Assembly: GCA_043798915.1 (NCBI GenBank)
Contig: JAZDOG010000063.1
Span: forward strand, 1-21,361
Direction of reading: 5' to 3'
DNA length: 21,361 bases
From: Pseudomonadota bacterium
GTDB lineage: Bacteria > UBA10199 > 2-02-FULL-44-16 > JAAZCA01
Of the stretch, positions 1,865-19,481 are shown piece by piece; the stretch's first letter is position 1, and each line of letters begins with the position of its first letter. Position numbers and translations under genes: made by a program. Under the pieces are notes generated by a model that searched no databases, was not told the DNA's origin, and saw only the letters and a program-made list of their open reading frames with translations.

Positions 1865-1866
1865 AT

Positions 1867-1905
1867 CTCTACCCCACCCTAACCCTCCCCTTACAAAGGG
1901 GAGGG
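1867..1905. repeat. Palindromic intergenic repeat, half copy (copy 1)
   Basis: CTCTACCCCACCCTAACCCTCCCCTTACAAAGGGGAGGG matches the right arms at 2964-3002 and 16279-16317; internal hairpin CCCTCCCCTT-ACA-AAGGGGAGGG. Confidence 0.9.
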
Positions 1906-1915
1906 GACAATAGGT

Positions 1916-2893: not shown

Positions 2894-2918
2894 TATGAAT
2901 CCTCCTTATGAATCCTCC
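2893..2918. repeat. Perfect 13-bp tandem duplication covering the ribosome-binding site
   Basis: TTATGAATCCTCC at 2893-2905 and 2906-2918; the minus strand reads AAGGAGGATTCATAAGGAGGATTCATAATG. Confidence 0.9.
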
Positions 2919-2927
2919 TTTTACTCC

Positions 2928-3003
2928 TCCCCTCCTTTGTAAGGAGGGGAAGGGGAGGTAGACCTCTACCCCACCCTAGCCCTCCCCATACAAAGGGGAG
3001 GGA
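2928..3003. repeat. Palindromic intergenic repeat, full copy (copy 2)
   Basis: TCCCCTCCTTTGTAAGGAGGGG...GGTAGA-CC-TCTACCCCACCCT...CCCTCCCCATACAAAGGGGAGGGA; two hairpin arms in inverted orientation. Confidence 0.92.
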
Positions 3004-3012
3004 ATATTAAAT

Positions 3013-3966: not shown

Positions 3967-3997
3967 GTCTCCTCCTCACCAGGTTGGTTATTGGTCA

Positions 3998-5374
3998 TCA
4001 AGCGCCGCGGCGCACAAATCTCCCAAAACCAGGGGCAGCGACAATCCCCTTGCCATCTTCATAGATGACGGCGCCCCGGCACATCGTGAGAACCACCTTG
4101 CCAGTGAACTCCTGGCCCTCGAAGGGCGTGAACTTGCCCTTGGAACCGAATGCCGCGCCCTTGACCTTCCAGCGGGCATCGGGGTTCACGAACACGAAGT
4201 CCGCGTCGGTGTCGACGGCGATCGCGCCCTTGCGCGGATAGAGCCCGAAGCGCCGCGCCGCCGCCGAAGAGGTGACCTCGACGAGCCGCGCGAGCGTCAT
4301 GCGCCCCTTGAGATATCCTTCAGAGAGGGCATAGGGAAAGAGGAGCTCCGTGCCGGAGATGCCGCCGTGGTCCGTCCAGATGCTGCCTGTCTCCTTCTCC
4401 TTCGCCTGACACGGTGAGTGATCGCTGGAGAGAAAATCGATTTCCCCTTCCACGAGATATTTCCAGAGCTTCGCCGAGTCCTCCTTCGTCTTCACGACCG
4501 GCGCGGTCTTGAGTATGGACCCTTTGGCCACAAAGTCTTCATGCGAAAAAGCCAGGTAGTGGATGCAGGTCTCGAGCGTGACGTTTGCGCCGTTCTTCTT
4601 AGCCTCGATGACCAGATCGGCCGCCTTGGCGGAACCGACGTGCACTACATGCAGCGCACAGCCGGTCTCGGTGGCGACCGCAAGCCCCTGTCTCACGCCG
4701 TCCACCTCGGCCGGGTCGCACCTCGCCTCGTAATAGGCCTTGGGGTCCAGACGCCCGAGCGTCTGGAGGCCCGCGGTGCGGCGCTGGACGAGGTCGCGAT
4801 CCTCCGCGTGCAGGCCGACGACGAGCCCCAGCTCATGGGAACGCCTCATCACCTCTACGAGTTCAAGGGGCAGCAGGTGCTCGAAGGAGCGCATGCCGGA
4901 GAGCAGATAGCACTTCACCCCGACGCAGCCCTCGATCTTGAGCTGCCTCACGTGCGAGCGCCAGCCGCTCGTGCGCATGGCGTTGCCGGAGACGCCGCCC
5001 CAGAGCGCAAAGTCGATGACCGACATATCGCCGATGGCGCGGAGCTTGCCCATGAGGCTCGTCCGGTCGGTGACCGGCGGGATGGATGTGTCCGGCATGT
5101 CGATGACGCAGGTGACGCCGCCGGCGGCCGCGCTCATCGAACCGCATATGAATTCCTCGCGGTCCGTGTAGCCGGGGGTGTTGAAGTGGACGTGTGGATC
5201 GATGGCGCCGGGGAGGACGAGGAGGCCGGTGGCGTCGAAGACGTGGCTGCTGCCCGGCGCCCTGGTGGTCGCCGGGATGATATCGCGGACCGCCTCGCCC
5301 TCGACAACGATGTGGACTTTCTGCGTATCGTTGTCCTTGCCAGTCGAGATCGTAGCGTTGGCTATTACCGCCAT
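3998..5374 (-). CDS. Cyclic amidohydrolase (allantoinase / hydantoinase / dihydroorotase family)
   Basis: PGAIDPHVHF (HxH), AAAGGVTCVIDMP, carbamylated-Lys region GVKCY, HAED, HVVH, ETCIHYL, SSDHSP; 458 aa. Confidence 0.92.
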   Translation of the reverse strand: MAVIANATISTGKDNDTQKVHIVVEGEAVRDIIPATTRAPGSSHVFDATGLLVLPGAIDPHVHFNTPGYTDREEFICGSMSAAAGGVTCVIDMPDTSIPPVTDRTSLMGKLRAIGDMSVIDFALWGGVSGNAMRTSGWRSHVRQLKIEGCVGVKCYLLSGMRSFEHLLPLELVEVMRRSHELGLVVGLHAEDRDLVQRRTAGLQTLGRLDPKAYYEARCDPAEVDGVRQGLAVATETGCALHVVHVGSAKAADLVIEAKKNGANVTLETCIHYLAFSHEDFVAKGSILKTAPVVKTKEDSAKLWKYLVEGEIDFLSSDHSPCQAKEKETGSIWTDHGGISGTELLFPYALSEGYLKGRMTLARLVEVTSSAAARRFGLYPRKGAIAVDTDADFVFVNPDARWKVKGAAFGSKGKFTPFEGQEFTGKVVLTMCRGAVIYEDGKGIVAAPGFGRFVRRGA

Positions 5375-5450
5375 CCCTTGAACTCCTGTCTATAAGCGAC
5401 GATATAACACCAAACCCCTGCCTTGCCAACAATCCGTGCAAAAAATGTGT

Positions 5451-6836
5451 TCAAAATCCCCTGCGCTCGCGGATCATGCTGTCCGTGTGCGGCACCCTGG
5501 CCTGCTGCGCCTCCCAGTGCTCGCTGGAGCGCTGGGCGCGCAGCTCCTCGGCCGTCTTCCCCTGCTGTTCCACCCAAGTATAGTACTTGAGGTTGGCCCA
5601 GCAGTCGCGCGCGTGCTGCGTTCCCTCGCGGATGTAGTCCGTCCCCTGCCTGTGGAAGATGGAATCGAGACGCCTCTCTGCCTCGGCGGCATCCATCTTT
5701 CCCTGATCCCTGTTCATCGCTTCGAGGACGCTCAAGTAGCGCTCGGTCGAGTCGGTGGCGATGGTGAAGATGATGTCGTCCTTGCCAAGGTTCCAGTGCT
5801 TCGCAGACTTTATCGCGCCCAGGATGTTGCAGATGCCGGAGATGCCGAAGAGGTCGCGCATGCATTCCAGCCCTGCCCCGTCCTTGCCGTGCTTGGCGAC
5901 GGCTTTCAATCCTGCATCCTCGTGGACGAGCTGCATGCCCTTCTTGCAGTCCCACTCGTCGATGCAGACGATGGCGTCCATATTGTCGGTGTTGTGGATC
6001 CAGGTCACATGCTTGTCGCCGATGCCCTGTATGTCGTGGCCACCGAAGCCGTTGGAGTAAAGCGTCGGGCACTGTATCGGCTCCAGGCCCACGATCCTGC
6101 ATTCGGGATTCGCCTGCTTCACGCGGTCGCCGCACGCTATCGTGCCGGAGGAGCCCATTGCCGACGTGACGGCAGCAAAGCGTTTGCACACGCCCTTGGC
6201 TTTGAGCTCGCCAAAGAGCTCGACCATCGTGTTTCCGGTGACGAAGTAGTGAAAACGGTAATTCGCGAAATCGGCGAACTGGTTGACGATGATGGTGTTC
6301 GGCTCCTTCTCGAGCTCATGCGTCTTGTCGTATATCTCCTTGACGCTGGATTCGCATCCCGGCGTCTTCACGTATTTGGCGCCGTAGTATGTGATCTTGT
6401 CGAAGCGCTCCTTGCTCATCTCCTCTGGCAGGATGACGAGGGAATCGTAGTTCATCCGCTCGCCGACATACGCGCCGCCGACGCCGAAGTTTCCGGTGGA
6501 CGGCCACACGAGCCTGTGTTTCCCGGGGGTGATGGTCCCCGCGACCTGCCGCTCGACTGTGCAGGAATATGTTGGCCCCACCTTGTGGCTGCCTGTCGGA
6601 AATCCGCGGCCGACAAGGACGCAGATATTGGCATCGATGCCCGTGAGCGCTCGGGGCAATATGACGTGCCTTATCCTGTCGTCGCCGTCGCGCCACGTGA
6701 TGTTGAAGAGGTTAAGCGGCGAAAGGGGATCCCCTTCCAGCGCCGGCAGGGCCTTCTTCCGCAGATCGGGCTTTATCTTCGACGGGTGCAGCATCTCCTC
6801 GAACGTCGGACCCCAGACATGATTGCCTTCCGTCAT
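5451..6836 (-). CDS. PLP-dependent enzyme, fold type II (cysteine synthase / TrpB superfamily), 461 aa
   Basis: Start moved to ATG 6836 (ATGA overlap with the upstream stop, GGAGG ribosome-binding site). PTGSHKVG (Schiff-base Lys), WPSTGNFG, GSSGTI phosphate loop, HDIQGIGD. Confidence 0.9.
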   Translation of the reverse strand: MTEGNHVWGPTFEEMLHPSKIKPDLRKKALPALEGDPLSPLNLFNITWRDGDDRIRHVILPRALTGIDANICVLVGRGFPTGSHKVGPTYSCTVERQVAGTITPGKHRLVWPSTGNFGVGGAYVGERMNYDSLVILPEEMSKERFDKITYYGAKYVKTPGCESSVKEIYDKTHELEKEPNTIIVNQFADFANYRFHYFVTGNTMVELFGELKAKGVCKRFAAVTSAMGSSGTIACGDRVKQANPECRIVGLEPIQCPTLYSNGFGGHDIQGIGDKHVTWIHNTDNMDAIVCIDEWDCKKGMQLVHEDAGLKAVAKHGKDGAGLECMRDLFGISGICNILGAIKSAKHWNLGKDDIIFTIATDSTERYLSVLEAMNRDQGKMDAAEAERRLDSIFHRQGTDYIREGTQHARDCWANLKYYTWVEQQGKTAEELRAQRSSEHWEAQQARVPHTDSMIRERRGF

Positions 6837-8179
6837 ATCCGCCTCCATAATTGTTTGGCCAGTTTTCTCGCCTCTTTCGCCACCAGTTCCTCGTCGACCC
6901 CGGCGATTTTGAAATCGCGCATCCTGACTGCGCCGCCGACGATCGCCGTGCGGACCTCGGCGTCGAGCGCGCCGAAGAGGCAGTGCCACCAGGCGTTCTT
7001 TGACGTGATTTCGGTCGGCGGGATGGCGTTTGAAATTATGACGTCCGCAGCGGCGCCCTTCTCGATCGAGCCGACTTTCAGGCCGAACATGTCGGAGACG
7101 ATCTCGGGCGCGGTATCCCACAGCGCATCCCGCGCCTCCAAGGCCCCGGCCTGCGCGTCGCGCGCGCCGATTCTGTGCAGAACGGAGGCGAGCCTCAAAT
7201 CCCCCGCGATGCCTGCGCTCATCCCGTCGGTGCCGACGGCCACGGGGATATTGCGCCGCCGCATCTCGAGGAAGGGTGCGATGCCCACAGCGTTTCCGAG
7301 GTTAGAGAGCGGGCAGTGGACGGCGGTGGCGCCGGACGCTTTGAGGATCGCGATGTCGCGGGAATCGGCGTGGACGCAATGGACAGCGAGCGAGTCCGGC
7401 CTCAAGATCCCCCTCTTCGCCAGCCTCGCGACGGGCGAGGAGCCGTTGAGTTTTTTTGTGGCCTTCACGTCCTCCACACCTTCCGCCACGTGGACGTGCG
7501 CACCGACTTCATAGATTCCCATGAGTTCGCGCGCGGCGTCGAGAGTGCCGTCCGAGAGCGTCATCGACGCATGCAGCCCCACCATCCCGCGCTGCAGAAA
7601 ACCTGGCGCCCGCTCGCGCCGGTGAGCGGCGTTCTCGAGCCAGAGGCCGGACTCGGCCAGGGCTTCATCGCGAGCGCGCTTGCCGGCGCGGTCCGATATC
7701 TCGAAGCAGAGCGAGGCGCGGACGCCGATCTCTGCCAGCGCCTCGGATATGCTGCCCAGCGAGCCGGAGATCGCGCCATAGCTAGCGTGGTGATCGATCA
7801 AGGTCGTGACGCCGGAGCGGATCGAGCTGATTCCACCGAGGAGCGCGCTGATGCGGATGTCGTCGGGCGACAGCGCACGGTCGAGCTTCCACCAGAGCCC
7901 CTCGAGAATTCTGCCGAACGACGGCATCCTTCCGACGGGCATCCCGCGGGCAAGCGCGCTGTACAGATGCATGTGGGGATTGATGAACCCGGGCAGAACG
8001 TAGCGGCCGCCGGCGTCGATGACCCGGGACTTGAGACCTGAGACTTGAGACTTGGGGTTATTCGGGCCGACTTCGGAAATTCTGCCGCCGCTGATATGGA
8101 TGAAGCCGTCGGGATAGACCGGGCCTTTGCCGGTTATCACGCACGCGTTTTTGATTATTATGTCTGCTGAATTGGGCAC
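6833..8179 (-). CDS. ssnA: SsnA-like metal-dependent aminohydrolase
   Basis: PGFINPHMHLYSALARG, LWWKLDRAL, GVTTLIDHHAS, GLHASMTLSD, HVHVAEG and GTDG match the SsnA/chlorohydrolase pattern; GTG start. Confidence 0.85.
   Translation of the reverse strand: MPNSADIIIKNACVITGKGPVYPDGFIHISGGRISEVGPNNPKSQVSGLKSRVIDAGGRYVLPGFINPHMHLYSALARGMPVGRMPSFGRILEGLWWKLDRALSPDDIRISALLGGISSIRSGVTTLIDHHASYGAISGSLGSISEALAEIGVRASLCFEISDRAGKRARDEALAESGLWLENAAHRRERAPGFLQRGMVGLHASMTLSDGTLDAARELMGIYEVGAHVHVAEGVEDVKATKKLNGSSPVARLAKRGILRPDSLAVHCVHADSRDIAILKASGATAVHCPLSNLGNAVGIAPFLEMRRRNIPVAVGTDGMSAGIAGDLRLASVLHRIGARDAQAGALEARDALWDTAPEIVSDMFGLKVGSIEKGAAADVIISNAIPPTEITSKNAWWHCLFGALDAEVRTAIVGGAVRMRDFKIAGVDEELVAKEARKLAKQLWRRI
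8028..8055. repeat. Four tandem 7-bp units inside the ssnA-like gene
   Basis: GACTTGA GACCTGA GACTTGA GACTTGG. Confidence 0.8.
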
Positions 8180-8233: not shown

Positions 8234-10399
8234 TCAAAATGGGGCGATGACAGCCGCGGCTGGGACAGCAAACGGCATCGCCGCCCCGCCAAAATAAACC
8301 GCCTCACTCCCCGTCATCGAGGAAGGGACACCATTTTCGCCACTGACAGCTCGCTCACGGGCGATCCTCGCGGCGAGGCTCGGCCTCTTTTTTCCTTCCA
8401 CGTGCGCCCGATGATACAGGCTGACTCCGGATACGCCGGCGACGATGATCCCGCCGCCGCCCTCCGCGGCCGGGCCTGCGGAACCCCCCGAACCGTTTCC
8501 ACCCGTCGGCGATGAATCGATGATATCCCCCTTGCGCGGGATGACTGTGAATCTGGTGCCCGCGCCTTCTTCGGAATCGACTTCAATCCTCCAACCGAGT
8601 TCCTCGGCCGACCTTTCCGCAAGCCAAAGGTAATTAACTTTTTCTGCGCCTTTCTTCCATGCCCCATTGAGATCCGCTATCCACTTGCCGTTGTCCTCGA
8701 CGACGATGGCCTTTTTTCCCTTGTCCCACCAGACCCTCACGCCGCGCTCCGAGCGCGCAGCGTCATAACGATCCGCAGCGCTCCGAGCGAGACCGAGGAG
8801 AATCTGATCCGCCCTCTCAAAAACGAGCCCATCCCTGTAGCGAAGGCCATGTGGCAGATCGACGTCAATCCTCACGCCTGACTTGAAAGCCTGGACGGCC
8901 ACCGGGAGGAGAACCTGGGTCGTTCGGTCGCGGAGATTGAGGGTCCTGCGGTCGTATGTGGCGAAGTCCGAGAGAATCTTGAGGACCCTCGCCTCCCCGG
9001 TTTTAGGAACGGCCCCAAGCGCGACAAGGCGCCTGAAGAGCTCGCCGTGGACCCGAACCACAATTTCCGTTTGCGAATCAAGGGCATCGCCAAACACCCT
9101 TTCAAAGATGAACATAAGCGTCCAGGCAGGTCCAAGCCATGTATCGCGCGCGTATCGAAGAGCATCTTCCCGGCTCTTGCCGCCGGCCATGACGCCCGGG
9201 GCTATCCTTGCAAAGACACCATTGAAAAACCCCTTCGCCCGCTGTTCAAACTTATCGGGTTTGCTTATGCCCAAAAGCTCTCTCAGGAAATCGCCATTGA
9301 CCGGCAACTCCCTGGCCGGGCCGGCAAGGATGGAATCACTCGATGCGATCCGAGTAATAAAATTGGCCGATTCCTCATCTCCGCTGGCAGCGTATACCGC
9401 AAGATCAGCCAGGCCATCTCCCAGGGCTTTTACACCTGGAAACGTCGCCGGCAATTCGGTTGTGAGGAGCTCTGCGGGAAAACCGTCATCCGGGCGAGGA
9501 ACTGCAGCGACTGACACAAGGGTCGCAAAGCGTTCTGGAGAAATTCCTGGTCCCGCGCTCCAATCGCTCATGTCTATCTCCAGGCGAACTGTGGTCCCGC
9601 GGCCTGGCTCCGACTCGACCTCGGCCTTACCCCCAAGCGCTTCAGTTGTCGCTTCGGGCGCATTTCGCCGAAGCAGATTCTCCGTATCCTCCAGAATTTT
9701 ATCGTCCGAACGAGAGTGCGTGCCGATCAGCTCCAGGATCATGTTCGCGAAAAGGGCAAAATGGCCGAAGAGCATCTCCTTGAAGGAGCGGTCCCTTGGG
9801 AATGATGCGTCGAAGATGCGGCTGGCCACCCACAGCGGCCCCCGCGCGATCTCCTCTGCGTATACGACCGCACGGGCCCTCCCTTCGTTCCCGGACATGA
9901 TCTCATCTGCGATCCTCAATTTGACGCCTGTGTAAAACTCTCTCACCATTTGGCGAAACACGCCCGGGTCGGGCTCGCTGTGGAGGGACTTTAAAAAATG
10001 GAGGCTCTCGCTGGTGCGGAGCGCCGTGCCGGCGAGCAGGGCGTTGCTTTTGGCAAGGCTGTGCAGCTCCTGCTTTTTGCTATCATCATCCAATGCAGCG
10101 ATGGAGAGTTTGGAGAGCTCATCCACGAGATATTCCAGCTCATCCCTTTCTTCCGGCAGATTCCTTACGGAGAGCGCCGACATGATTTCCTCAGGCGAAC
10201 CAAAAAGCCTGCCGCTCCACCAGACGATCCCCCTGCCATTTGCGTCTCCAAAGACAAAGCGTTGATGCATGATGCCACTCGGGACATAGCTGTCGACTGC
10301 TGCGCCTTGAGGCTCGCGTGGCTGGTCAGACTTCGGCAACAGCCAGGCAGGCAATATGCTGCGCAAAAATTTCCCCACAGGACCCGACTTCATTCCCAT
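8234..10399 (-). CDS. Large hypothetical protein (721 aa): two ~105-aa repeat modules, degenerate HATPase_c domain, Gly-rich linker and conserved C-terminal tag
   Basis: Long ORF with AGAGG ribosome-binding site; IVVEDNG and LGWRIEVDSEEGAGTRFTVIP resemble histidine-kinase ATPase boxes; paralogous to 10419..12575. Confidence 0.8.
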   Translation of the reverse strand: MGMKSGPVGKFLRSILPAWLLPKSDQPREPQGAAVDSYVPSGIMHQRFVFGDANGRGIVWWSGRLFGSPEEIMSALSVRNLPEERDELEYLVDELSKLSIAALDDDSKKQELHSLAKSNALLAGTALRTSESLHFLKSLHSEPDPGVFRQMVREFYTGVKLRIADEIMSGNEGRARAVVYAEEIARGPLWVASRIFDASFPRDRSFKEMLFGHFALFANMILELIGTHSRSDDKILEDTENLLRRNAPEATTEALGGKAEVESEPGRGTTVRLEIDMSDWSAGPGISPERFATLVSVAAVPRPDDGFPAELLTTELPATFPGVKALGDGLADLAVYAASGDEESANFITRIASSDSILAGPARELPVNGDFLRELLGISKPDKFEQRAKGFFNGVFARIAPGVMAGGKSREDALRYARDTWLGPAWTLMFIFERVFGDALDSQTEIVVRVHGELFRRLVALGAVPKTGEARVLKILSDFATYDRRTLNLRDRTTQVLLPVAVQAFKSGVRIDVDLPHGLRYRDGLVFERADQILLGLARSAADRYDAARSERGVRVWWDKGKKAIVVEDNGKWIADLNGAWKKGAEKVNYLWLAERSAEELGWRIEVDSEEGAGTRFTVIPRKGDIIDSSPTGGNGSGGSAGPAAEGGGGIIVAGVSGVSLYHRAHVEGKKRPSLAARIARERAVSGENGVPSSMTGSEAVYFGGAAMPFAVPAAAVIAPF
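8381..8492. repeat. Near-identical DNA segment shared with 10551-10725
   Basis: 8381-8458 vs 10551-10628: 78 bp with 3 mismatches. 8453-8492 vs 10686-10725: 40 bp identical. Confidence 0.95.
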
Positions 10400-10418: not shown

Positions 10419-12575
10419 TTACGGGACTACTGCGGGGATCGGTGGTGCCACAACAGCACCGCCGACAAAAACCGCCGCGCTATTTTCAAAAGGGCCGTCT
10501 GTTCCGTCACGATGAGCAGCCCGCTCGCGGGCAAGCCTCACAGCGACACCCGGCCTCTTTTTTCCTTCCACGTGCGCCCGATGATGCAGACTGACTCCGG
10601 ATACGCCGGCGACGATGACCCCGCCGCCTGCCTGCCCCGACGCCGCTGCCCCCGATGAAGGAACCGGCGCAGCGCCGCTTCCCGCGCCGCCGCCCTCCGC
10701 GGCCGGGCCTGCGGAACCCCCCGAATTGCTCCCGCCCGGAGCCTTCGGTGGTTTTGTCGCTTCATCGCCGGTCTCGATCGCATCGGCACGCCTTGCCGGC
10801 GCAGCCTCCGGCAGAAAGTGCTTGATGAATTCGATGAGCGGGCCGGGGATGATGTGGTCGAGCGCCCACGCGACTCCAGCGGCTCCCGCGAGGGCAAGGC
10901 CCGATGCGATGGAAATGGTCGCATCGGCCGGGCCGTAGGCCGCCTGCCCGCCTGCTGCCAAAGCCTCCGCAGGCGCATCCTCCGGCGCGGCCTGGGCCAT
11001 GCGCCGGCTAAGACTTGTGCCGCGATAGGCGCGCGCGCCCTCCGCATCGGCCTTCTTTTCCGTGATGCTTCCCGGCGGCGGCACGATAATAACGGACCCC
11101 GATCTATAGATCAGCCTCCACTCCTTTGGGAGTTCGACGGAAGAGAGATCCGGAATTCGACCAGTCGATGCGACGACCTCAATGCCGCCCGCCTCACCGA
11201 ACTTCACCCATCCGATCTTTATCGTCCGATCGCCGGAGAGTTTTTTGTCGGCGGCTATTGCGGAGCGGACTATCGACCGAAGCGGCGCGTCGAGGCGCGA
11301 CGCCGATTCCGCGTCTTTGAAGCCGAGGCTGGAGGGGATATCGAATTCGACTCCGATCCCGGCCCTCTGTGCTTCAAAGAGCTCCGCGCCCAGCGCGCCG
11401 ACGGCGCGGCTGTTCAGAGATGCCACGGCAAAGAAGCTGTGCAGAAAGCTCGTGGAGCCAAGCCATTCCCTGAGGGCCTCTTCGGAGGTCAATGAGGGAT
11501 CCTGTGCAGTGTTTTCAAGCATGGCATACATAGCGATCTGCGTGCCAGCGAGATTCGCCTCCATGTCGCTGCGGTCAAAACCCATGCGATCGTACAGCAG
11601 CTTAATCGCCGCAAAAGGCCCGCGCGCCATCTCCATCGCGCGCGTCCTCGCCTGCTCTGAGGCGTCGCCGCCGGAGGCGATTCCCGCTGCCATCTCGACT
11701 GCGGCCCTCCGGTAGAGATCGAGGGCCCGTGAGTTCCACTCCGCAGGATCGGGGGCTAAGGCCACGCGCCTCATGATCTCCAGATGCTCGATCACGCGCG
11801 CGGCGGTCCCGGCGAGCGCCGCGTCGCTTCCAGCCAGCCACCGAAGCGCCTCGAGCGCCCCGGCGTCGCCGCGGACCGCGGCGGCCGAGAAGTGGGCCAG
11901 CGTCCTGAAGGCCCCAGAGCTGCGTTCGTAGAGACCCTCCATCCGTCCGCGCAACATCAGCTCGCGCGGCAAACGGCCGGGGGGTTGCTTGGGGAGGCCG
12001 GAGCCGGGGATTGGACTCGCACGGAAATCATCCGGGCCGGCGGGGGGATCGGCGCGGTCGAAGCTTCTGATAAAGAGATCAAGGATGCCGTGTGAGAAAA
12101 AACCGCTATGAACGTCGCTCCCCCCGAGAAGCGAGTCGTCTTTATTCGCAAAGCGCCGTGAGTATATGAGGCGCGCCGCCCACAGCGGACCCAGAGCGAA
12201 GTCCCTGATATACGCACCGCCCAGCTCGCCGTCCGCGCGGTAGCTGGTCGCGCCAGGCTCCATAATCGTTCCGCCGGACCCCATCATGAACTTGCCATTG
12301 ACGCGGGCCATGAACTTTTCCGGTTCGTCCATCCCGAGCAAAAGCTCGAGGTCCTTTCGGCTGTCGAGGATTCTCCGCGCGGCGCCTGCAAAGGGCGATT
12401 CGCTGACCGCGATCTCCTCGAGCCTTCGCGCCGCACCCTCGCTGCCATCCGCCATCTCCATGGCGAGCCGGGCAAGATCATCCGCAGTTGGCCCGCCGGA
12501 GAAGGCCCGCAGCGCGACTGATGCGCCACCGGCCAGAAACGACTCGGCAATTTCGAATATCGACTTTATGCCCAT
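10419..12575 (-). CDS. Large hypothetical protein (718 aa), paralog of 8234..10399
   Basis: Same MG(I/M)KS start, same repeat module twice, a more eroded HATPase-like segment, Ala/Gly/Pro-rich linker and the same C-terminal tag. Confidence 0.8.
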   Translation of the reverse strand: MGIKSIFEIAESFLAGGASVALRAFSGGPTADDLARLAMEMADGSEGAARRLEEIAVSESPFAGAARRILDSRKDLELLLGMDEPEKFMARVNGKFMMGSGGTIMEPGATSYRADGELGGAYIRDFALGPLWAARLIYSRRFANKDDSLLGGSDVHSGFFSHGILDLFIRSFDRADPPAGPDDFRASPIPGSGLPKQPPGRLPRELMLRGRMEGLYERSSGAFRTLAHFSAAAVRGDAGALEALRWLAGSDAALAGTAARVIEHLEIMRRVALAPDPAEWNSRALDLYRRAAVEMAAGIASGGDASEQARTRAMEMARGPFAAIKLLYDRMGFDRSDMEANLAGTQIAMYAMLENTAQDPSLTSEEALREWLGSTSFLHSFFAVASLNSRAVGALGAELFEAQRAGIGVEFDIPSSLGFKDAESASRLDAPLRSIVRSAIAADKKLSGDRTIKIGWVKFGEAGGIEVVASTGRIPDLSSVELPKEWRLIYRSGSVIIVPPPGSITEKKADAEGARAYRGTSLSRRMAQAAPEDAPAEALAAGGQAAYGPADATISIASGLALAGAAGVAWALDHIIPGPLIEFIKHFLPEAAPARRADAIETGDEATKPPKAPGGSNSGGSAGPAAEGGGAGSGAAPVPSSGAAASGQAGGGVIVAGVSGVSLHHRAHVEGKKRPGVAVRLARERAAHRDGTDGPFENSAAVFVGGAVVAPPIPAVVP
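10551..10725. repeat. Second copy of the shared C-terminal-tag DNA, with 63 extra bp
   Basis: Direct alignment with 8381-8492; the extra 63 bp lie between GCCGCC direct repeats (10623-10628 and 10686-10691). Confidence 0.95.
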
Positions 12576-12651: not shown

Positions 12652-13671
12652 TTATTGTCTTCCCTTGCCCTCGATCTGATATTCCCGGACGCCCTGCATG
12701 TGCTCAGCCAGGGTAGCGGTGAAGAGGTGGGTCCCGTCGTTCTTCGACACGAAAAAGAGGTAATCGCTCTGGGCAGGGTGCAGGGCCGCATTCAGCGAGG
12801 CCTTGCCGGGATTGCATATGGGCCCGGGCGGCAAGCCCGGATGGACATACGTGTTATAGAGATGCGGGTTAGTGATATCCCCTTTATGTAAATTGCCGTC
12901 AAAATTGGGCAGCCCGTAGATGATCGTCGGGTCGCTCTGCAACGGCATCTTGTTCTTCAATCTGTTCATGAAGACCGAGGCGATGAGAGGGCGCTCGTTG
13001 GCCGCCCCCGTCTCCTTCTCGATGATCGAGGCGAGAGTCACGATGTCTTTCTCCTTCATCCCCGTGGCCTTCAGCGCGGCGCCATCGAGCGTCTTCCACA
13101 CTTCGCGGAAGCGCGCGACGAGCCTCTTTATCAGCGCCTCGGCGGTGACCGGCTTCGAGATGAGATATGTGTCGGGAAAGAGATAGCCCTCCAGGGAGTT
13201 CACCCCGGCAAACCCCAGCTGCGCGATGAATGTGGGATCGCGGGCCAAAAACCTGAATCGCGCTGCGATATTTGACCCTGCCGCAAACGGCCCCCGTTCC
13301 AGCGTCCGCGCGGTATCCTCCATCGTCTGGCCTTCGATGATCGTGAACGGATATTGCTTCACCTCGCCGCGCGCGACTTTTTTGAACGCCGACATGAGCG
13401 TCGTGCCAGCCTCGAACTCGTATGTCCCGGCGCGCAACTTTCCGCCGATCCCCCTGAACCTTGCAAGGGCCACGAAGAGGGCCGGCGTGCGGATGACATT
13501 CTGTTGTGCGAGATCCGCGGCTATCCTGTGCACGGAAGAGCCGGGCGCGATCTCGACCTCAACGGTCGCGGGCGAATGCCACTGCGTGGCAGCCGTGTAG
13601 AGCGACACCCCCACCACCGCCACGGCAATGAGCGCGACAATCATTACTCCGGCCAGGAATATCCTGAACAT
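12652..13671 (-). CDS. mltG: Endolytic peptidoglycan transglycosylase MltG (YceG)
   Basis: N-terminal TM anchor, LEGYLFPDTY, LASIIEKET (catalytic Glu), MPLQSDPT, YNTYVHPGLPPGPICNPG, YLFFV. Confidence 0.97.
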   Translation of the reverse strand: MFRIFLAGVMIVALIAVAVVGVSLYTAATQWHSPATVEVEIAPGSSVHRIAADLAQQNVIRTPALFVALARFRGIGGKLRAGTYEFEAGTTLMSAFKKVARGEVKQYPFTIIEGQTMEDTARTLERGPFAAGSNIAARFRFLARDPTFIAQLGFAGVNSLEGYLFPDTYLISKPVTAEALIKRLVARFREVWKTLDGAALKATGMKEKDIVTLASIIEKETGAANERPLIASVFMNRLKNKMPLQSDPTIIYGLPNFDGNLHKGDITNPHLYNTYVHPGLPPGPICNPGKASLNAALHPAQSDYLFFVSKNDGTHLFTATLAEHMQGVREYQIEGKGRQ

Positions 13672-13688
13672 GCAGCCTCCTGTGGATC

Positions 13689-14141
13689 TTAGCCTTCGTT
13701 CCCTTCAGCCGCCGGCGCCTCGTGCGCCCTGAGGTAATCCTCGAGTATCGCGACTGCAGCCATCTTGTCGATCACTTCCTTGCGCCGCGCTCGGCTCACG
13801 TTCGCCCCGATGAGCCGTTCCTCGGCGATGGCGGTGGAATAGCGCTCGTCCCACATCTCGACCAAAACCTCGATGCCGGATGACTTCAGATGCGCCTCGA
13901 CGCGCTCCGCAAATGCCTTCACCTTTGCCGCCTGGACCCCAACCCCGCCCTCCTCGTTGAGCGGGATGCCGATGACTATGTGCTCTGCCGCAAGCTTGCG
14001 GCAGAGCGAGGCTATCGCTTCCAGGTCGCGCACACCCCCGCGGCGCTTGAAGACGCTGACCGGCTGCGCTGTCCATCCAAGAGGATCGCTCACGGCAACC
14101 CCGATGCGCTTGGTCCCTATGTCGAGACAGAGAATTCTCAC
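13689..14141 (-). CDS. ruvX: YqgF/RuvX family nuclease (150 aa)
   Basis: Start moved to GTG 14141: RILCLDIGTKRIGVAVSD, VIGIP, WDERYST, IDKMAAVAILEDYL; typical ruvX-mltG synteny. Confidence 0.95.
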   Translation of the reverse strand: MRILCLDIGTKRIGVAVSDPLGWTAQPVSVFKRRGGVRDLEAIASLCRKLAAEHIVIGIPLNEEGGVGVQAAKVKAFAERVEAHLKSSGIEVLVEMWDERYSTAIAEERLIGANVSRARRKEVIDKMAAVAILEDYLRAHEAPAAEGNEG

Positions 14142-14148
14142 AAGAGGC

Positions 14149-14177
14149 ACAGTAACTTGGCGGTGTTTTTGTGGCAA
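14149..14177 (-). promoter_or_regulatory. Putative sigma70 promoter of ruvX-mltG (possibly leaderless)
   Basis: TTGCCA (14177-14172), 17 nt, TACTGT (14154-14149), then 7 nt to the GTG start; no Shine-Dalgarno. Confidence 0.55.
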
Positions 14178-14220
14178 CAACTTCTTGATTTTGCATAGGC
14201 AGCTTGGCATCAATGCAGAT

Positions 14221-14493
14221 ATGGAGCGTCTGCATCTCGTGATCCACGGCCGCGTGCAGGGCGTCTTTTTCAGGGCCAATGCTCAGAAGGAGGCGTCAAA
14301 TCTCGGGCTCTGCGGTTGGGTCCGGAACACGGCCGACGGCGGAGTCGAGACAGTGGCCGAGGGCGAGAGGCCTGATCTCGAGGCCTTTGCCGCCTGGTGC
14401 CGCCGCGGCCCCCCTCACGCCATGGTTCAGAAGGTCGATATCTCGTGGGAGGCCTCAGAGGGGATGCCTCCCGGCTTCCGCATTGAATACTGA
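14221..14493 (+). CDS. acyP: Acylphosphatase (90 aa)
   Basis: From ATG 14221: VIHGRVQGVFFR, GWVRN, GGVETVAEG, GPPHAMV, FRIEY. Confidence 0.96.
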   Translation: MERLHLVIHGRVQGVFFRANAQKEASNLGLCGWVRNTADGGVETVAEGERPDLEAFAAWCRRGPPHAMVQKVDISWEASEGMPPGFRIEY

Positions 14494-14515
14494 AAAACCC
14501 AAAGGTACGAAGGGT

Positions 14516-14545
14516 TTGACAGCACCTTGAGGGCGGGTATATAAA
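14516..14545 (+). promoter_or_regulatory. Putative sigma70 promoter of the PPIase gene
   Basis: TTGACA (14516-14521) followed after 16-18 nt by TATATA/TATAAA. Confidence 0.5.
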
Positions 14546-14589
14546 CCTGACTTCTTGATAATTATCAAAGATATCCAAAGGAGGATGAA

Positions 14590-15654
14590 ATGAGGAACTG
14601 GATAGCACTTCTGGGGCTCGTTGTATGGATGGCGGCCATCGGCTGCGGCGGACCATCGTCCGGCAAGGTGTTGGCGGAGGTCAACGGCAGCAAGATAACC
14701 GAGGGCGACCTGAAATTTCTAGGCGAAATCAATCCACGCATCAAAATGCAGATCAACGATCCCGCCGGCCAGAAGCGCATCCTCGACAATCTGGTCGAAC
14801 AGGACCTGCTCTATCAGGAAGCGGTGAGGGAGGGCATCAACCACAGGGCCGACGTCAAGGCTAAGATCGATCTCTATCGCAGGGTCATCATCTCGCAGTC
14901 GCTGATCGATGCCGACATCGAAAAAGCGGCAAAGAAATATTACGATGAACATCAGGGCGAATTCAACAAGCTCGTCCTCTCGCACATCATGGTCAAATAC
15001 GCTGCGCCCGAAGAGACGAAGAACGCCAAGAAGGGCGAAAAGCTCCGCACCGAAGAGGAGGCTCTCAAGGAGGCGCAGGATATCAAGGCTCGGATCGACA
15101 AGGGCGAGGAGTTTGCAAAGGTAGCGAAGGATACCTCCGACGATGTCGCGTCCAAAGCGCGGGGCGGCGATCTCGGGCCCGCAATGAAGGATGAGCCGCG
15201 CCTTGTGCAGAGGGGATTCGGGCCGCTGCTCGAGAAGGCCTCCGAACTGAAAGTGGGCGAAGTTGCTGGCCCCATCAAGACCGACAAGGGCTACCACATC
15301 ATCACTGTGACGCGCGGCCTCGAGCTGGAGCCATTCGACGAGGCGAAGCAGATGATCGTCATGAAGCTGCGGGATACCTCAAGGCAGGACCTTCTCGCCC
15401 GCCTGAAGAAAGACGCGAAGATATCGTTCCCTGAGGACGAGAAGAAAGAGGCTGAGGCCAAGAAACAGGCCGGGGCAAAGCCGGCCGAAGGCGCGCAGGC
15501 TGCAGCACCGGCCGAAGGCGCCGCCTCACCAGAAGCCGCCGCGGCCAAGCCAGCACCGGCGCCCGAGGTCAAAGCACCGGCCCCTCCAGCCAAGACCCCA
15601 GCCCCCGCCGAGAAACCGACGGCCAAGACTGACAAGAAGGCGCCCAGGAAATAA
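14590..15654 (+). CDS. Parvulin (PpiC-type) peptidyl-prolyl isomerase lipoprotein, PrsA/SurA-like
   Basis: Lipobox AAIGC, LAEVNGSKIT, SHIMV, FAKVAKDTSDD..SKARGGDLG, GPIKTDKGYHII; Ala/Pro/Lys-rich tail; AAGGAGG ribosome-binding site. Confidence 0.93.
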   Translation: MRNWIALLGLVVWMAAIGCGGPSSGKVLAEVNGSKITEGDLKFLGEINPRIKMQINDPAGQKRILDNLVEQDLLYQEAVREGINHRADVKAKIDLYRRVIISQSLIDADIEKAAKKYYDEHQGEFNKLVLSHIMVKYAAPEETKNAKKGEKLRTEEEALKEAQDIKARIDKGEEFAKVAKDTSDDVASKARGGDLGPAMKDEPRLVQRGFGPLLEKASELKVGEVAGPIKTDKGYHIITVTRGLELEPFDEAKQMIVMKLRDTSRQDLLARLKKDAKISFPEDEKKEAEAKKQAGAKPAEGAQAAAPAEGAASPEAAAAKPAPAPEVKAPAPPAKTPAPAEKPTAKTDKKAPRK

Positions 15655-15662
15655 CAAGTCGA

Positions 15663-16211
15663 TCATTTAGGCCCTATGCGTTTTTCCACCGCATCGCCGA
15701 CCTTGATACCGCGCTTTGCTACGGTGCCGGCGTTCACCTCGAGGACATAGCGGAAATCGGCCGGCGACTCGATCAGCTCCGTCGACTCCGGAACCGAGTT
15801 CTCCTTGAAGCCGACGACCTTCATGTCATCGCCGACGAATATGAGGTCCAGCGGAATCTTCGTGTCCTTCATCCAGAACTTCTCGCGCCCCGCCTGAGCG
15901 AAGACGAACCACATGCCCGAGCTCTCCGCGAGCGACTCGCGATTCTGAAGCCCGTTTCTGCGCTCGTCATCGGTCTCCGCGATCTCTGCAGCTATCGGCG
16001 CATCGCCGGAGGCAGCCTTGATGACGATCGTCGCGACCGACGTGTTCGTGCCAGGCAACTGAGCCTGCGCAACAGAACCCGTGTTCTGCCCGGCCGTGGC
16101 CTCGGGCGTCGCGCTCTCATTCACCGAATTTGTCTGGAGTTTTTCGCAGCCAGCCATAAGGATCAGCGCAGATGCACGCATGCATGCAACCATCACCACC
16201 ATCTCTTTCAT
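15663..16211 (-). CDS. DUF192 family protein, probable lipoprotein
   Basis: AEIAET..ERRNGLQNR, GMWFVF, FWMKDTKIPLDLIF, YVLEVNAG, GIKVGD; lipobox-like LMAGC; AAGGAGG ribosome-binding site. Confidence 0.92.
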   Translation of the reverse strand: MKEMVVMVACMRASALILMAGCEKLQTNSVNESATPEATAGQNTGSVAQAQLPGTNTSVATIVIKAASGDAPIAAEIAETDDERRNGLQNRESLAESSGMWFVFAQAGREKFWMKDTKIPLDLIFVGDDMKVVGFKENSVPESTELIESPADFRYVLEVNAGTVAKRGIKVGDAVEKRIGPK

Positions 16212-16236: not shown

Positions 16237-16318
16237 TCCCCTCCTTTGTAAGGAGGGGAGGGGGGAGGTAGACCCTGTCTCTACCCCACCCTGACCCTCC
16301 CCTTACAAAGGGGAGGGA
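16237..16318. repeat. Palindromic intergenic repeat, full copy (copy 3)
   Basis: TCCCCTCCTTTGTAAGGAGGGG...GGTAGA-CCCTGTC-TCTACCCCACCCTGACCCTCCCCTTACAAAGGGGAGGGA; matches 2928-3003. Confidence 0.92.
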
Positions 16319-16358: not shown

Positions 16359-17102
16359 TCATCCGCGGAAAAGCCGGCGGATAGCATGTCCCGTGGCAAT
16401 CCATCCCAGTCGCGCGACGGACTCGCCCAGCGGTATCCCCTTGGGGCACGCGGCCTCGCACGCCTCGGCGCCGGCGCAGTCGGAGATTCCGCCGCGCTGC
16501 AGGAGCGCATCGAGCTTCTCGCCCCTGCCCATGCGACCGATCGGATGCTCGAGGAGCGGAAGGGTCTGGCTGAAGAGAAATGCCCCGGCAAATTGCGATC
16601 TGGCGTTCACCTGAGGGCACGCCTCGGAGCAGGCGCCGCACATTATGCAGCTTGCGAAACGCTTCATCCCCTCATGCTCTTCAGGCGAAACCCTGATGGC
16701 CGGACCACCGCCCGGGACACCATCTATCCCGACCCACGCCCGCGATCTCTCGAGGGCGTCGAACATGCGCTGCCTGTCCACCTTGAGATCCCTGACGATC
16801 GGAAACTTCGAGAGCGGTTCGAGCACCACCGGCGAAGACAGATCTTCGACGGGCGTGTGGCAAGCGAGCCCGACCCTCCCGTTTATGATCATCGCGCACG
16901 CACCGCACATCCCCTCCATGCATGTTGTCTCCCACACGACAGGCGCGGTCGGATTCCCGTCGGCGGTGACGGGTTTTTCCCGCACAGCACGGAGCGCGGT
17001 GGCTACCGTCATCCCGGCCTTAAACTCGACATCGAATATCTCCCAGTATGGAAGATCCTCAGGGTCGTCCTGCCGCTTGATTTTCAGAGATATGGTTTTC
17101 AT
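16359..17102 (-). CDS. sdhB: Succinate dehydrogenase / fumarate reductase iron-sulfur subunit
   Basis: Start moved to ATG 17102 (GGAG ribosome-binding site). CMEGMCGAC...LAC (2Fe-2S), LEPLSKFPIVRDLKVDR, CIMCGACSEACP, CAGAEACEAACPKGI. Confidence 0.93.
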   Translation of the reverse strand: MKTISLKIKRQDDPEDLPYWEIFDVEFKAGMTVATALRAVREKPVTADGNPTAPVVWETTCMEGMCGACAMIINGRVGLACHTPVEDLSSPVVLEPLSKFPIVRDLKVDRQRMFDALERSRAWVGIDGVPGGGPAIRVSPEEHEGMKRFASCIMCGACSEACPQVNARSQFAGAFLFSQTLPLLEHPIGRMGRGEKLDALLQRGGISDCAGAEACEAACPKGIPLGESVARLGWIATGHAIRRLFRG

Positions 17103-18816
17103 CCAAAATCTCCACCCTCTCGGAATGATCGAGCGCAAACCCATCGGCGGATTTGCGGGCGACCGTCGTCACGAGCCATTTTTTGTCGTTTCGCTCCGGG
17201 TGGGCCGGTTTGAAATGGGCGCCGCGGCTCTCCTCCCTCGCGATCGAGGCGGCGACGAAAAGCCTTGCGAGCACGAGGTCCGATCTGCACCTGCGCATAA
17301 ACGGCAGTTCGCCATTTGCCCACTCCGCGCGGTCCGCGATGGGCGCGCGTCCGAAGCGATCGGATATCTCATCGATCTTCTCCGCAGCCTTCGCCAGGGC
17401 CTTATTGTCCTTCGCAACCAAGGCGGCCGCGGCGAGCGCGCCGCAGAGTTCGGCCTTGAGGGCATGCGCGCTCTCATCCCCTTCCTGTCCGGAAAAATGG
17501 GAGTTCACATCCTCCTCGCGGCTCTTTGCAGACTCGAACAGGGAAACCGGCGCCTCTGATTGAAGGCCAAGCCCATGCGCGTGCCTCGCTGCGCTCCTGC
17601 CTGCTATCATTCCGCCATAGGCCGACGCCAGGAGTTCGTTCCCGCCGAGCGTCCCCGCGCCGTGGTACTGCGAGGCGGACGAGCCCGCCGCAAAGAGGCC
17701 GGGGATGCTCGCGTAGTGTTCGGCATCCACCCGGAGCCCGCCGAGCGTCTGATGCGCGGCGGGAACGACCCTCATCGGCGAGGCTAAAGGATCCTCGCCG
17801 GTCAATCTCCCGTAGATATCCATCGCCTCGCCGAAGTTTGCATCGAGCCAGTCAGGGTCGACCGCAGAGAGGTCGAGGAAGGCTTCGGGGCCGCCCTCCC
17901 CCTCGGGTGCGGCCTCGCGCCACGCATCCCACATCGCGCGCACGGCGACGTCGCGCGGCAGGCGCGCGCCATGCGAGGGGAATTTCTCCTCCAGGAAGTG
18001 CGATTGCCTTCCATCGCGCCGGATCGAGACGCGCGCGCCGGCGCAGATGACCGCGTCGCCGACCGGGATGCGCTTGTCCGCTGTCTCGATCGCAAATGGA
18101 TGAAACTCGACGAATTCGGGGTTGGCGAAGAGAGAGCCCTGTTCAAAGCACGCAACGGAAGCGGAGCCACCGCTCGATGGGTTGCTGCTGTACGGACCGA
18201 ATATGCCTGCGTATCCCCCCGCGCATATTATCACGGCATCGGCGGGGAAGGATTTCACTTCCATGTTCCTGAGATTCATAGCCACGGCGCCGCGACAGGT
18301 TCCGGCATCGTCGACGACGAGCGACAAAAACTCCCATCCCTCCAGGAGGGAGAGCCTCTCTTCCGAAGCGAGGCGGCGCAGTTGGCCATCCAGCGCCGAT
18401 ACGACCCCGTGCCCCGTGCCCCAGCCAGCCGCGGCCGTGCGCGCAGCCTGCGCACCGCACGAAAAACCCTGCGCGATGAGACCGTCGCGCGTCCTGCCGA
18501 ACATCACGCCCATGCGGTCGAACATATGCGCGATCGAAGGCGCAGCCTCGCACATCTTCATGACCGGCCCCTGGTGCGCAAGAAACCCTCCGCACACGAC
18601 GGTATCGCGCGCATGCGACGCCGCGGAATCGCCCTCTCCCTGGGAATCGAGCGCTGCGTTAAACCCGTCGTGGATGCAAGATGAGCGCGAGCGCCTCGGC
18701 GGCACGGAGGCGACGAGCATGACCTCCGCGCCATCATGCACCGCGGAGAGCGCGGCCATGCAGCCCGAAACTCCGCCGCCGACAACGATGATTTTGGATC
18801 TCTTCTTCGATGGCAT
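17059..18816 (-). CDS. sdhA: Succinate dehydrogenase / fumarate reductase flavoprotein homolog with divergent active site
   Basis: IIVVGGGVSG FAD motif, FANPEFVEFHP, PRDVAVR, HQTLGG, GLFAAG, REESRGAHFKP; lies between the cytochrome b and Fe-S genes. Confidence 0.88.
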   Translation of the reverse strand: MPSKKRSKIIVVGGGVSGCMAALSAVHDGAEVMLVASVPPRRSRSSCIHDGFNAALDSQGEGDSAASHARDTVVCGGFLAHQGPVMKMCEAAPSIAHMFDRMGVMFGRTRDGLIAQGFSCGAQAARTAAAGWGTGHGVVSALDGQLRRLASEERLSLLEGWEFLSLVVDDAGTCRGAVAMNLRNMEVKSFPADAVIICAGGYAGIFGPYSSNPSSGGSASVACFEQGSLFANPEFVEFHPFAIETADKRIPVGDAVICAGARVSIRRDGRQSHFLEEKFPSHGARLPRDVAVRAMWDAWREAAPEGEGGPEAFLDLSAVDPDWLDANFGEAMDIYGRLTGEDPLASPMRVVPAAHQTLGGLRVDAEHYASIPGLFAAGSSASQYHGAGTLGGNELLASAYGGMIAGRSAARHAHGLGLQSEAPVSLFESAKSREEDVNSHFSGQEGDESAHALKAELCGALAAAALVAKDNKALAKAAEKIDEISDRFGRAPIADRAEWANGELPFMRRCRSDLVLARLFVAASIAREESRGAHFKPAHPERNDKKWLVTTVARKSADGFALDHSERVEILDENHISENQAAGRP

Positions 18817-18819
18817 ATT

Positions 18820-19434
18820 CTAAAATGCGAGGATCACCCTCGCGCCCCACCCTGCAAGAATGATCGTCACTACCCACATTGCCATCGCCGCCGCGTCCTG
18901 CGCGCGGCGGGAGGCGGTGATCCCCCATCTCGTGAGCGCAAAAGAGATGCCGTTCCCTATGTGAAACGCGGCGCACGCGACGCCGGCGCCGTAGATCGCC
19001 TTCACCCACGAGGGGGCCAGGAGCTTTTGCATGTACGCGAATTCGGCATGCCTCCCCGTGAAGGCGAAGACGAGCTCGGTGGTGTAGATGTAATGGATTA
19101 TCGGCACGATGACCAGAATGCCAGTCAGGCGCTGAAGGGCGTACATCCAGTTGCGGTACGACGAAAAGGCGATGACGTTGAACTGCGAGCTGTAGATGAC
19201 CGACAGGCCGACCGCCGCATGGAACATGAGAGGGGCGACGACGAAGACCATTTTGATCGCTGAGAGGAGCGGGACCTTTTCCCCGATTGCGGCAACGAGA
19301 TTGAAAGAGGAAGCCCCGCCCAGCGCGGCCGAGCATGGTATGAGGAAGAAGGCGATATAGCCGACGGAGAGGAGTATGCCCGACAGCGAATGCAGGCGTC
19401 TGAGCCAGAAGTATCCTGTCCCCGCGGTTCCCAT
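18820..19434 (-). CDS. sdhC: Diheme cytochrome b558 membrane anchor of SDH/FRD (Bacillus-type)
   Basis: LRRLHSLSG, FHAAVG, NWMYALQRLTG, IIHY, FHIGNGI, WGI: five TM segments and four His ligands; the second ATG (19434) is best spaced from GGAGG. Confidence 0.92.
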   Translation of the reverse strand: MGTAGTGYFWLRRLHSLSGILLSVGYIAFFLIPCSAALGGASSFNLVAAIGEKVPLLSAIKMVFVVAPLMFHAAVGLSVIYSSQFNVIAFSSYRNWMYALQRLTGILVIVPIIHYIYTTELVFAFTGRHAEFAYMQKLLAPSWVKAIYGAGVACAAFHIGNGISFALTRWGITASRRAQDAAAMAMWVVTIILAGWGARVILAF

Positions 19435-19452
19435 GTCCATCCTCCCGAGGGG

Positions 19453-19481
19453 AATCTACATGCGGGCGCCTGCGCCGTCAA
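19453..19481 (-). promoter_or_regulatory. Putative sigma70 promoter of sdhCAB
   Basis: TTGACG (19481-19476), 17 nt, TAGATT (19458-19453). Confidence 0.6.

Follow-up and report, generated by a model that had tools for sequence, protein, structure and literature searches.

A Bacillus-type complex II apparently kept under selection after loss of its succinate site

Introduction

Complex II is defined by its dicarboxylate site. Can an operon be complex II by descent and build when that site has degenerated, and what would then keep it in the genome? The question is raised by a stretch of bacterial DNA of 21,361 nucleotides (contig JAZDOG010000063.1 of assembly GCA_043798915.1; here called the window), whose minus strand carries an sdhC-sdhA-sdhB operon with a single b558-type membrane anchor, the layout of type B succinate dehydrogenases. 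G000 denotes the query genome (2.34 Mb, 97% complete), other G labels are genomes of its class, and L labels are loci.

The best reading is that the operon is kept under selection as an intact SdhC-A-B trimer, though its succinate and fumarate chemistry appears to be lost. Synteny and family scores indicate that it is the lineage's ancestral Bacillus-type complex II by descent and build. The probability that it has no useful succinate or fumarate turnover, yet fills a selected role other than succinate oxidation, is put at about 75%. Genes in this state carry a succinate dehydrogenase annotation in public records. No description of a degenerate bacterial complex II of this kind was found in the open-access literature, a search in which subscription journals were largely outside.

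The Succinate Site

The flavoprotein gene and its altered sites lie at the following positions.

17059..18816, minus strand: sdhA, Bacillus-type flavoprotein of 585 amino acids (P0001); intact open reading frame (ORF), with the fold for flavin adenine dinucleotide (FAD) and the SdhB interface kept and the succinate site degenerate
18685..18687, minus strand: codon Arg44 of SdhA, replacing the covalent-FAD His45 (alignment to E. coli SdhA)
18055..18060, minus strand: codons Gly253-Asp254 of SdhA, replacing Thr/Ser254-Glu255 (alignment to E. coli SdhA)
17770..18096, minus strand: SdhA capping domain, about residues 241-349; present in the query, wholly or partly deleted in several orthologs
17650..17652, minus strand: codon Thr389 of SdhA, replacing Arg399 (alignment to E. 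coli SdhA)

A first-pass annotation of the window had claimed that SdhA lacks the covalent-FAD histidine and dicarboxylate-binding residues. Alignment with E. coli SdhA from NC_000913.3 shows that these substitutions are real. His45 is replaced by Arg44, Gln50 by His49 and Gly51 by Asp50; Thr254 is replaced by Gly253, Glu255 by Asp254 and Arg258 by Ile257; Asn398 becomes Gly388 and Arg399 becomes Thr389. Two further changes had been missed (Glu388 to Ser379 and Ser404 to Glu394). The equivalents of His242, Arg286 and His354 remain, as the annotation had stated, in the form of His239, Arg288 and His355. The dicarboxylate site is thus incomplete, with three of its six residues kept (from His242, Thr254, Glu255, Arg286, His354 and Arg399).

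The losses are concentrated in the active site. At sites invariant among 43 canonical sequences, the query retains 3 of 10 substrate or covalent-FAD residues vs 77 of 107 other core residues (Fisher p=0.011), and it keeps 11 of 14 FAD-contact residues. According to PMC5773532, the covalent bond raises the potential of the flavin from -145 to -55 mV, and succinate oxidation depends on this bond.

The rest of the flavoprotein is that of the SdhA/FrdA superfamily, with FAD-binding, capping and helical domains and the FAD-binding motifs present. An AlphaFold2 model has a mean confidence (pLDDT) of 88.1, and its fold matches 9a55_A best (template-modelling score, TM, 0.93) and 9lay_A with a TM of 0.87. 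All three proteins of the operon score best against Bacillus-type families, and identity to Bacillus SdhA is 42-44%. SdhA nevertheless falls below the equivalog cut-offs (PRK08641, 526.5 bits vs 855; TIGR01811, 410 vs 541.35).

Other members of the superfamily were considered as identities for the query. L-aspartate oxidase, NadB, was rejected: the query scores 179.7 vs a cut-off of 452.75 for TIGR00551 and is not a stand-alone protein, and the true nadB lies on contig C76, its product 54% identical to E. coli NadB. APS reductase, AprA, was rejected on a PRK06854 score of 54.7 vs 557. A whole-genome search found no second sdh in G000; the only other SdhA-like gene is nadB. The operon is therefore not a paralog, and it stands at the ancestral locus by synteny comparison. 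The annotation had offered "pseudo-enzyme paralog" as one description and had proposed looking for a second, canonical sdhA: the pseudo-enzyme half fits, the paralog half does not, and the search returned no such gene.

A wider set of 159 related SdhA loci, taken from other genomes and metagenomes, contains 146 with the full set of 8 catalytic residues, 12 that are incomplete but canonical over the part covered, and 1 (L180) that is degenerate in the manner of the query's family. Public records of the query's relatives are metagenome-assembled genomes labelled "Deltaproteobacteria bacterium" or "bacterium".

The State of the Family

The query's family comprises 13 genomes, 12 of them with the operon. 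The covalent histidine is absent in 12/12, and Arg399 in all 11 genomes that cover it (G006 is cut by a contig end). Other site residues are rarely kept: His242 in 2/12, Arg286 in 4/11 and His354 in 1/11. Succinate oxidation is very unlikely, and any flavin would have to be non-covalent, as the annotation had proposed.

Counted over the family, whose members include non-independent kin, invariant SdhA sites are retained in 10/109 cases for substrate or covalent-FAD residues, 126/161 for FAD contacts, 188/420 for the cap and 810/1238 for the other core. Sites that are variable even among canonical proteins are retained in 175/1080 cases, so that the substrate and covalent sites are retained less often than these. 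The pocket columns of His45, His242, Thr254, His354 and Arg399 each hold 7-12 different residues in 28 family-like rows. Some residues do recur (Glu394 in 22/27, Arg49 in 19/27, Asp or Glu at 50 in 19/28). Judged by these columns, no new conserved pocket is fixed in the family.

The capping domain, which contributes half of the site, has been lost from the family members G009, G006 and G011, and losses also occur in other families. These deletions are in frame and often end at the domain borders given in PMC5773532, which places the FrdA capping domain at residues 233-351. The SdhA model of one cap-less relative has a pLDDT of 90.5, and a fold search with a cap-less model found no separate cap-less family, its top matches being only of the SdhA/NadB/AprA family. 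The SdhA matches of all 12 family genomes, which are about 42-53% identical to the query, are free of internal stop codons. The dinucleotide motif GxGxxG is intact in 113/130 degenerate rows.

Iron-Sulfur Subunit, Anchor and Hemes

The two partner genes of sdhA flank it.

16359..17102, minus strand: sdhB, with 11 Cys for the [2Fe-2S], [4Fe-4S] and [3Fe-4S] clusters; likely start at 17102, overlapping the end of sdhA
18820..19440, minus strand: sdhC, b558-type anchor; His74/His160 proximal-heme ligands kept, Phe32 and Tyr117 in the distal-heme columns
19345..19347, minus strand: codon Phe32 of SdhC, replacing the distal-heme His of the first transmembrane helix

SdhB keeps all 11 cluster cysteines, in agreement with the annotation, and scores 276 bits for PRK08640, over the cut-off of 244. 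In the family, 11/11 genomes keep all 11 cysteines together with Arg107, Trp126 and Pro166. In the model of SdhA with SdhB, the interface score ipSAE is 0.92 vs 0.02 for the best control, with contact agreement of at least 94% and a partner pLDDT of 86. The ipSAE mark is reached by 116/157 solved and 2/215 mismatched pairs; a pair as well known as SdhA-SdhB may reach it because the predictor has memorised it. The modelled interface uses residues that are retained in the degenerate set, such as Arg108 and Gln145 of SdhA and Arg107 and Trp126 of SdhB.

The anchor is more altered; SdhC scores 46.3, below its cut-off of 96. In C. aurantiacus SdhC the distal heme is held by His-C32/His-C135 and the proximal heme by His-C81/His-C188 (PMC12663545). 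Columns were assigned from a profile of the query and 11 SdhC of its class, aligned to the C. aurantiacus chain with a weak E of 0.049 and the histidines in register. The query has Phe32 at the His-C32 column and Tyr117 at the His-C135 column, with His116 off by one. The alignment pairs His17 with Met18 of the solved chain, and this residue varies even among canonical proteins. The statement in the annotation that SdhC keeps four heme histidines was therefore mistaken: only the proximal pair His74/His160 is kept. Since both distal columns are lost, the query holds at most the proximal heme.

Across the family, His32 is found in 1/10, His117 in 5/10, His74 in 9/10 and His160 in 2/10, with Tyr at 160 in 7. 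In a wider comparison, Asn97 in the anchor's cytoplasmic loop is present in 22/22. HemB was found in just 3/13 family genomes and ferrochelatase in 2/5 tested, so the complex is kept in genomes in which no heme synthesis was found. The two with ferrochelatase, G000 and G004, are exactly the two family genomes that keep His74 and His160. Outside the family His160 is frequently Tyr despite HemB. Complex II without heme keeps its activity, according to PMC3290573.

Recurrence in the Class and Beyond

In a survey of 93 genomes of the class, most Bacillus-type loci were aligned, giving 36 canonical and 27 degenerate cases; G063 (fragmented), G068 (truncated and divergent) and G061 and G067 (partial) were omitted. 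The SdhB tree requires 4 changes of state. A tree of SdhA and SdhB also has 4 changes, all forced by starred branches, and the approximately unbiased test rejects a single origin (p=6e-7), on an 18-row subset picked to avoid long branches, with a quick LG+G4 model and 20 active-site columns removed. These trees put the number of times that the succinate site was lost in the class at four or more. As an evolutionary pattern, read from alignments and trees, degenerate complex II is solid.

The genomic setting points to repeated origin where succinate oxidation became dispensable. In 14 of the 27 degenerate genomes (12 family genomes, G013 and G026) no SucC passes the cut-off, and these 14 either lack a citrate-synthase match or give just a weak one within a long frame; the frame in G000 encodes ATP-citrate lyase. 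A further 11 carry a second sdh operon of another type, which adjoins the degenerate one in 9 genomes. Together these make up 25/27 degenerate cases. Of the remaining two, G090 (84% complete) has neither SucC nor a second sdh that could be found, and G021 (83%) has SucC with no second sdh found. Among the 36 canonical genomes, SucC went undetected in 2 (G020, G056), and 1 (G041) has a second sdh among the matches listed. A further 37 weaker matches lie outside those listed, and the comparison leaves other routes to succinate possible.

A profile search added 146 cluster representatives, of which 102 are Bacillus-type degenerate and 22 of these cap-less. Twenty-five degenerate representatives are nearer to Sorangium SdhA than to the canonical set, some of them labelled Polyangiaceae. 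Around one of these, 111/118 matches are fully canonical, including named Sorangium, Polyangium and Chondromyces proteins. Lightly degenerate rows lose His45 first (5/7 single losses) and then Arg286, an order that structural constraint could explain as well as selection could.

In a single class, natural selection has knocked out catalysis on four or more occasions and kept the complex, which separates whatever other role complex II may have from succinate turnover. For biochemists the orthologs offer a natural gradation, from loss of the His alone through site-less and cap-less to heme-less forms. In such genomes the presence of sdhCAB is no evidence for succinate respiration, fumarate respiration or a tricarboxylic acid cycle.

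About 20 SdhA-like representatives (P0159, P0167, P0173 and others) have Gln in place of the covalent His and keep at least 6 of the remaining 7 catalytic residues; they are candidates for fumarate reductases with non-covalent FAD. In G063 (L132) and G073 (L146) a canonical-type sdhA is split over several frames, probably by assembly errors or recent breaks.

Selection

The ratio of nonsynonymous to synonymous substitution (dN/dS) was estimated by the Nei-Gojobori method between related genomes, with dS near saturation (1.1-1.9) and several pairs of family f17 saturated. For sdhA the ratio is 0.10-0.26 in degenerate and 0.02-0.09 in canonical pairs, for sdhB 0.19-0.22 and 0.03-0.07, and for sdhC 0.17-0.32 and 0.03-0.17. 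The degenerate values are above the canonical ones yet far below 1, and constraint is therefore relaxed several-fold but real. Ordinary neighbouring genes have similar values (0.085-0.25, with one DUF192 pair at 0.49). Within one genus, degenerate SdhA copies are 36-47% identical vs 78-82% for the adjacent working SdhA. Private substitutions in a decaying gene, the outcome that the annotation had set against its own reading, are not what is seen: the whole family shares the state, and dN/dS stays well under 1.

Comparison with Known Systems

Type B diheme SdhCAB (PRK08641/PRK08640/TIGR02046; C. aurantiacus 9LAY). The query shares the gene order, the single b558-type anchor, the SdhA fold, the three Fe-S clusters and the proximal heme ligands. 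It differs in lacking the covalent His, the equivalents of Thr254, Glu255, Arg258 and Arg399, and the distal heme ligands; SdhA and SdhC fall below the family cut-offs, and searches of the genome turned up neither succinyl-CoA synthetase nor citrate synthase. The operon fails three defining type B features and is therefore not to be filed as a succinate dehydrogenase.

Heme-free complex II variants. These are a precedent for quinone chemistry without heme (PMC3290573).

E. coli FrdABCD. In contrast to the query, FrdA has covalent FAD and a full dicarboxylate site, and the anchor is made of two subunits.

NadB and flavocytochrome c3. Both have a non-covalent flavin in the same fold. E. coli NadB differs in keeping the equivalents of His242, Thr254, Glu255, Arg286, His354 and Arg399, and in having no SdhB or SdhC partners.

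Physiology of the Host

The gene content of G000, with 103 of roughly 1,957 called genes scanned, suggests an anaerobe that lives by fermentation. Present are 2-oxoacid:ferredoxin oxidoreductases, a soluble NiFe hydrogenase cluster, electron-transfer flavoprotein (ETF) with ETF:quinone oxidoreductase (ETF-QO), two complex I clusters, cytochrome bd and fumC. E. coli DsbB, GlpD and HemG used as queries found no match in this genome, those for Ndh and PyrD only weak ones, and a motif scan for a multiheme terminal reductase found none.

A UbiA-family prenyltransferase is present in 13/13 family genomes and 22/22 of the order, the G000 copy being MenA-like and below cut-offs. The futalosine-pathway proteins MqnA/D were found in 0/22 genomes of the order, canonical ones included, and are therefore uninformative on the degenerate state. 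UbiA in an order without MqnA/D suggests salvage of a naphthoquinone precursor.

The complex I clusters lie on contigs C94 and C16 (L260-L262), and the C16 copy has no nuoE/F/G among the matches listed. On contig C12 (L267:2911-12584) the NiFe hydrogenase cluster has NuoEF-like and MvhD-like subunits and adjoins HdrB-like and truncated HdrA-like genes.

Possible Roles

What role could remain to the complex? Tentatively favoured is a redox link of low flux that would connect carriers in the cytoplasm with the menaquinone pool; this reading has a real chance of being right and falls somewhat short of even odds. Electrons would enter through an exposed, non-covalent FAD of lower potential and would then cross the three Fe-S clusters to a proximal quinone site beside [3Fe-4S]. 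The distal heme, which serves a succinate-to-menaquinone step driven by proton-motive force, would no longer be needed. This link is favoured because the parts that survive most consistently are the FAD-binding fold, the contact between SdhA and SdhB, the three clusters and the anchor's cytoplasmic loop; in C. aurantiacus a proximal menaquinone site lies at the cytoplasmic SdhB/SdhC interface, at a shorter distance from [3Fe-4S] than the heme (PMC12663545). Slightly more doubtful is the extension of this idea to a general rule. Bacillus-type complex II might have a succinate-independent second function that outlives catalysis, and might, whenever succinate oxidation became dispensable, repeatedly have been stripped to a substrate-less, often cap-less and heme-less, membrane-anchored flavo-Fe-S module linking a cytoplasmic redox partner to the quinone pool; such modules would make up a class of pseudo-complex II that recurs in anaerobes with small genomes and in some Polyangiaceae.

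Several observations weigh against a redox link or against a selected role at all. Locus comparison found no donor, acceptor or partner gene for the flavin. Some distant orthologs have lost Fe-S ligands (G021 those of [3Fe-4S], G026 part of the [2Fe-2S] motif), and the second Gly of the dinucleotide motif is lost in G026, G084 and G085, changes that would be expected to break a redox link. Just 49/133 degenerate rows retain Glu388, which weakens the case for FAD occupancy, and retention of the cysteines could be due to folding alone. The operon is dispensable in some relatives, because G002 (99% complete) has no match beyond nadB and no sdhB, and G014 (93%) has no sdhB match. Nor did candidate partners hold up. 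A link to complex I was suggested by 5 genomes and rejected on 93, and G003, G007 and G008 have no NuoH match. For oxidase-linked respiration, COX1 is found in 0/13 family genomes and cytochrome bd in 1/13, only G000. ETF-QO shows no pattern: it occurs in 2/5 tested genomes, one of them the sdh-less G002.

Alternatively, the trimer might be a non-redox pseudo-enzyme, a membrane scaffold or assembly partner whose cofactor ligands persist for subunit folding. This has a modest chance of being right. No cofactor site is universal, each having disappeared from one lineage or another, whereas the three ORFs and the residues between SdhA and SdhB persist. The best fold match, 9a55, is an integrative model built on crosslinking data that pairs SdhA with AtpF, so that additional partners have a precedent. 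The partners tested for such a role fail, complex I included. A part in the flagellar switch, an idea that reportedly goes back to work on E. coli Frd and FliG, is contradicted by the absence of FliG in 12/13 family genomes and its presence in the one without sdh. A scaffold on the ATP synthase b subunit is a weak candidate, G009 keeping sdh though its ATPase matches look V/A-type by frame length. The way His160 tracks ferrochelatase in the family also suggests that heme is still loaded where it can be made. Very slow decay, in which function is gone and weak selection against misfolded expressed protein slows drift before deletion, is improbable. It would account for dN/dS values 3-5 times those of canonical copies, the divergence of degenerate SdhA from its working neighbours in one genus, the long SdhB branches, the missing operons of G002 and G014, and the graded erosion across lineages. 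It sits poorly with SdhA matches free of stop codons in 12 family genomes, with dN/dS like that of ordinary neighbours, and with deletions that are in frame and domain-precise, when the adjoining sucCD was removed outright.

A new substrate for the complex is unlikely. The annotation had proposed, as one of two readings, a quinone oxidoreductase with a different small substrate and non-covalent FAD, and the chance of this is slimmer again than that of decay. Fold and cap are intact in the query, His239, Arg288 and His355 are kept, and some family residues recur; against this, the pocket columns vary, with retention below that of variable sites, the cap is deleted in G009, G006, G011 and other families, the query has His and not the recurrent Arg49, and neither a dedicated partner gene nor conserved catabolic neighbours were found. 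Least probable, and by now quite remote, is a weak menaquinol:fumarate reductase activity of the query itself. Variants without the covalent ligand still reduce fumarate according to PMC5773532, and G000, with its three retained residues, has fumC and a quinone chain of ETF-QO and complex I. Yet the same source lists His232, Thr244, Arg287, His355 and Arg390 as the substrate-binding residues of FrdA, and the equivalents of Thr244 and Arg390 are both lost, on which ground a fumarate reductase with non-covalent FAD was rejected; the residues that the query keeps are, moreover, not kept by its relatives. The preferred reading remains a complex without useful succinate or fumarate turnover that is retained for another role.

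The Surrounding Genes

Two signals border the operon.

19453..19481, minus strand: sigma-70-like promoter match, 9/12, upstream of sdhC (consensus match only)
16237..16259, minus strand: terminator-like hairpin after sdhB; sucCD occupies the corresponding place in G016, G017 and G021

The annotation had described a good promoter; one match is present, at 19481-19453, and its 9/12 is the minimum score of the scan. Codon-adaptation percentiles of sdhC, sdhA and sdhB are 29-62, which says little about expression. The genes for MltG, RuvX, a peptidyl-prolyl isomerase (PPIase) and DUF192 lie downstream of sdhB (12652-16211) in a block that is syntenic across the order. sucCD lies 3' of sdhB in the canonical G016 and G017 and in G021; in the family sucCD is gone and DUF192 is directly next. 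A comparison of gene neighbourhoods found no dedicated partner gene travelling with the operon.

On the minus strand at 923-8179, genes for carbamate kinase, two carbamoyltransferase-family proteins, allantoinase, a pyridoxal-phosphate-dependent (PALP) enzyme and an SsnA-like amidohydrolase are clustered, and the cluster resembles an anaerobic locus for purine or allantoin breakdown. Between these and the MltG block, two tandem ORFs of about 720 amino acids (8234-10399 and 10419-12575, minus strand) show weak similarity to each other. One has a HATPase_c-like stretch; the other has no family match, and no further copy was found in the genome. Their 3' ends share a 133-nt repeat that is 84% identical (8347-8479 / 10517-10649).

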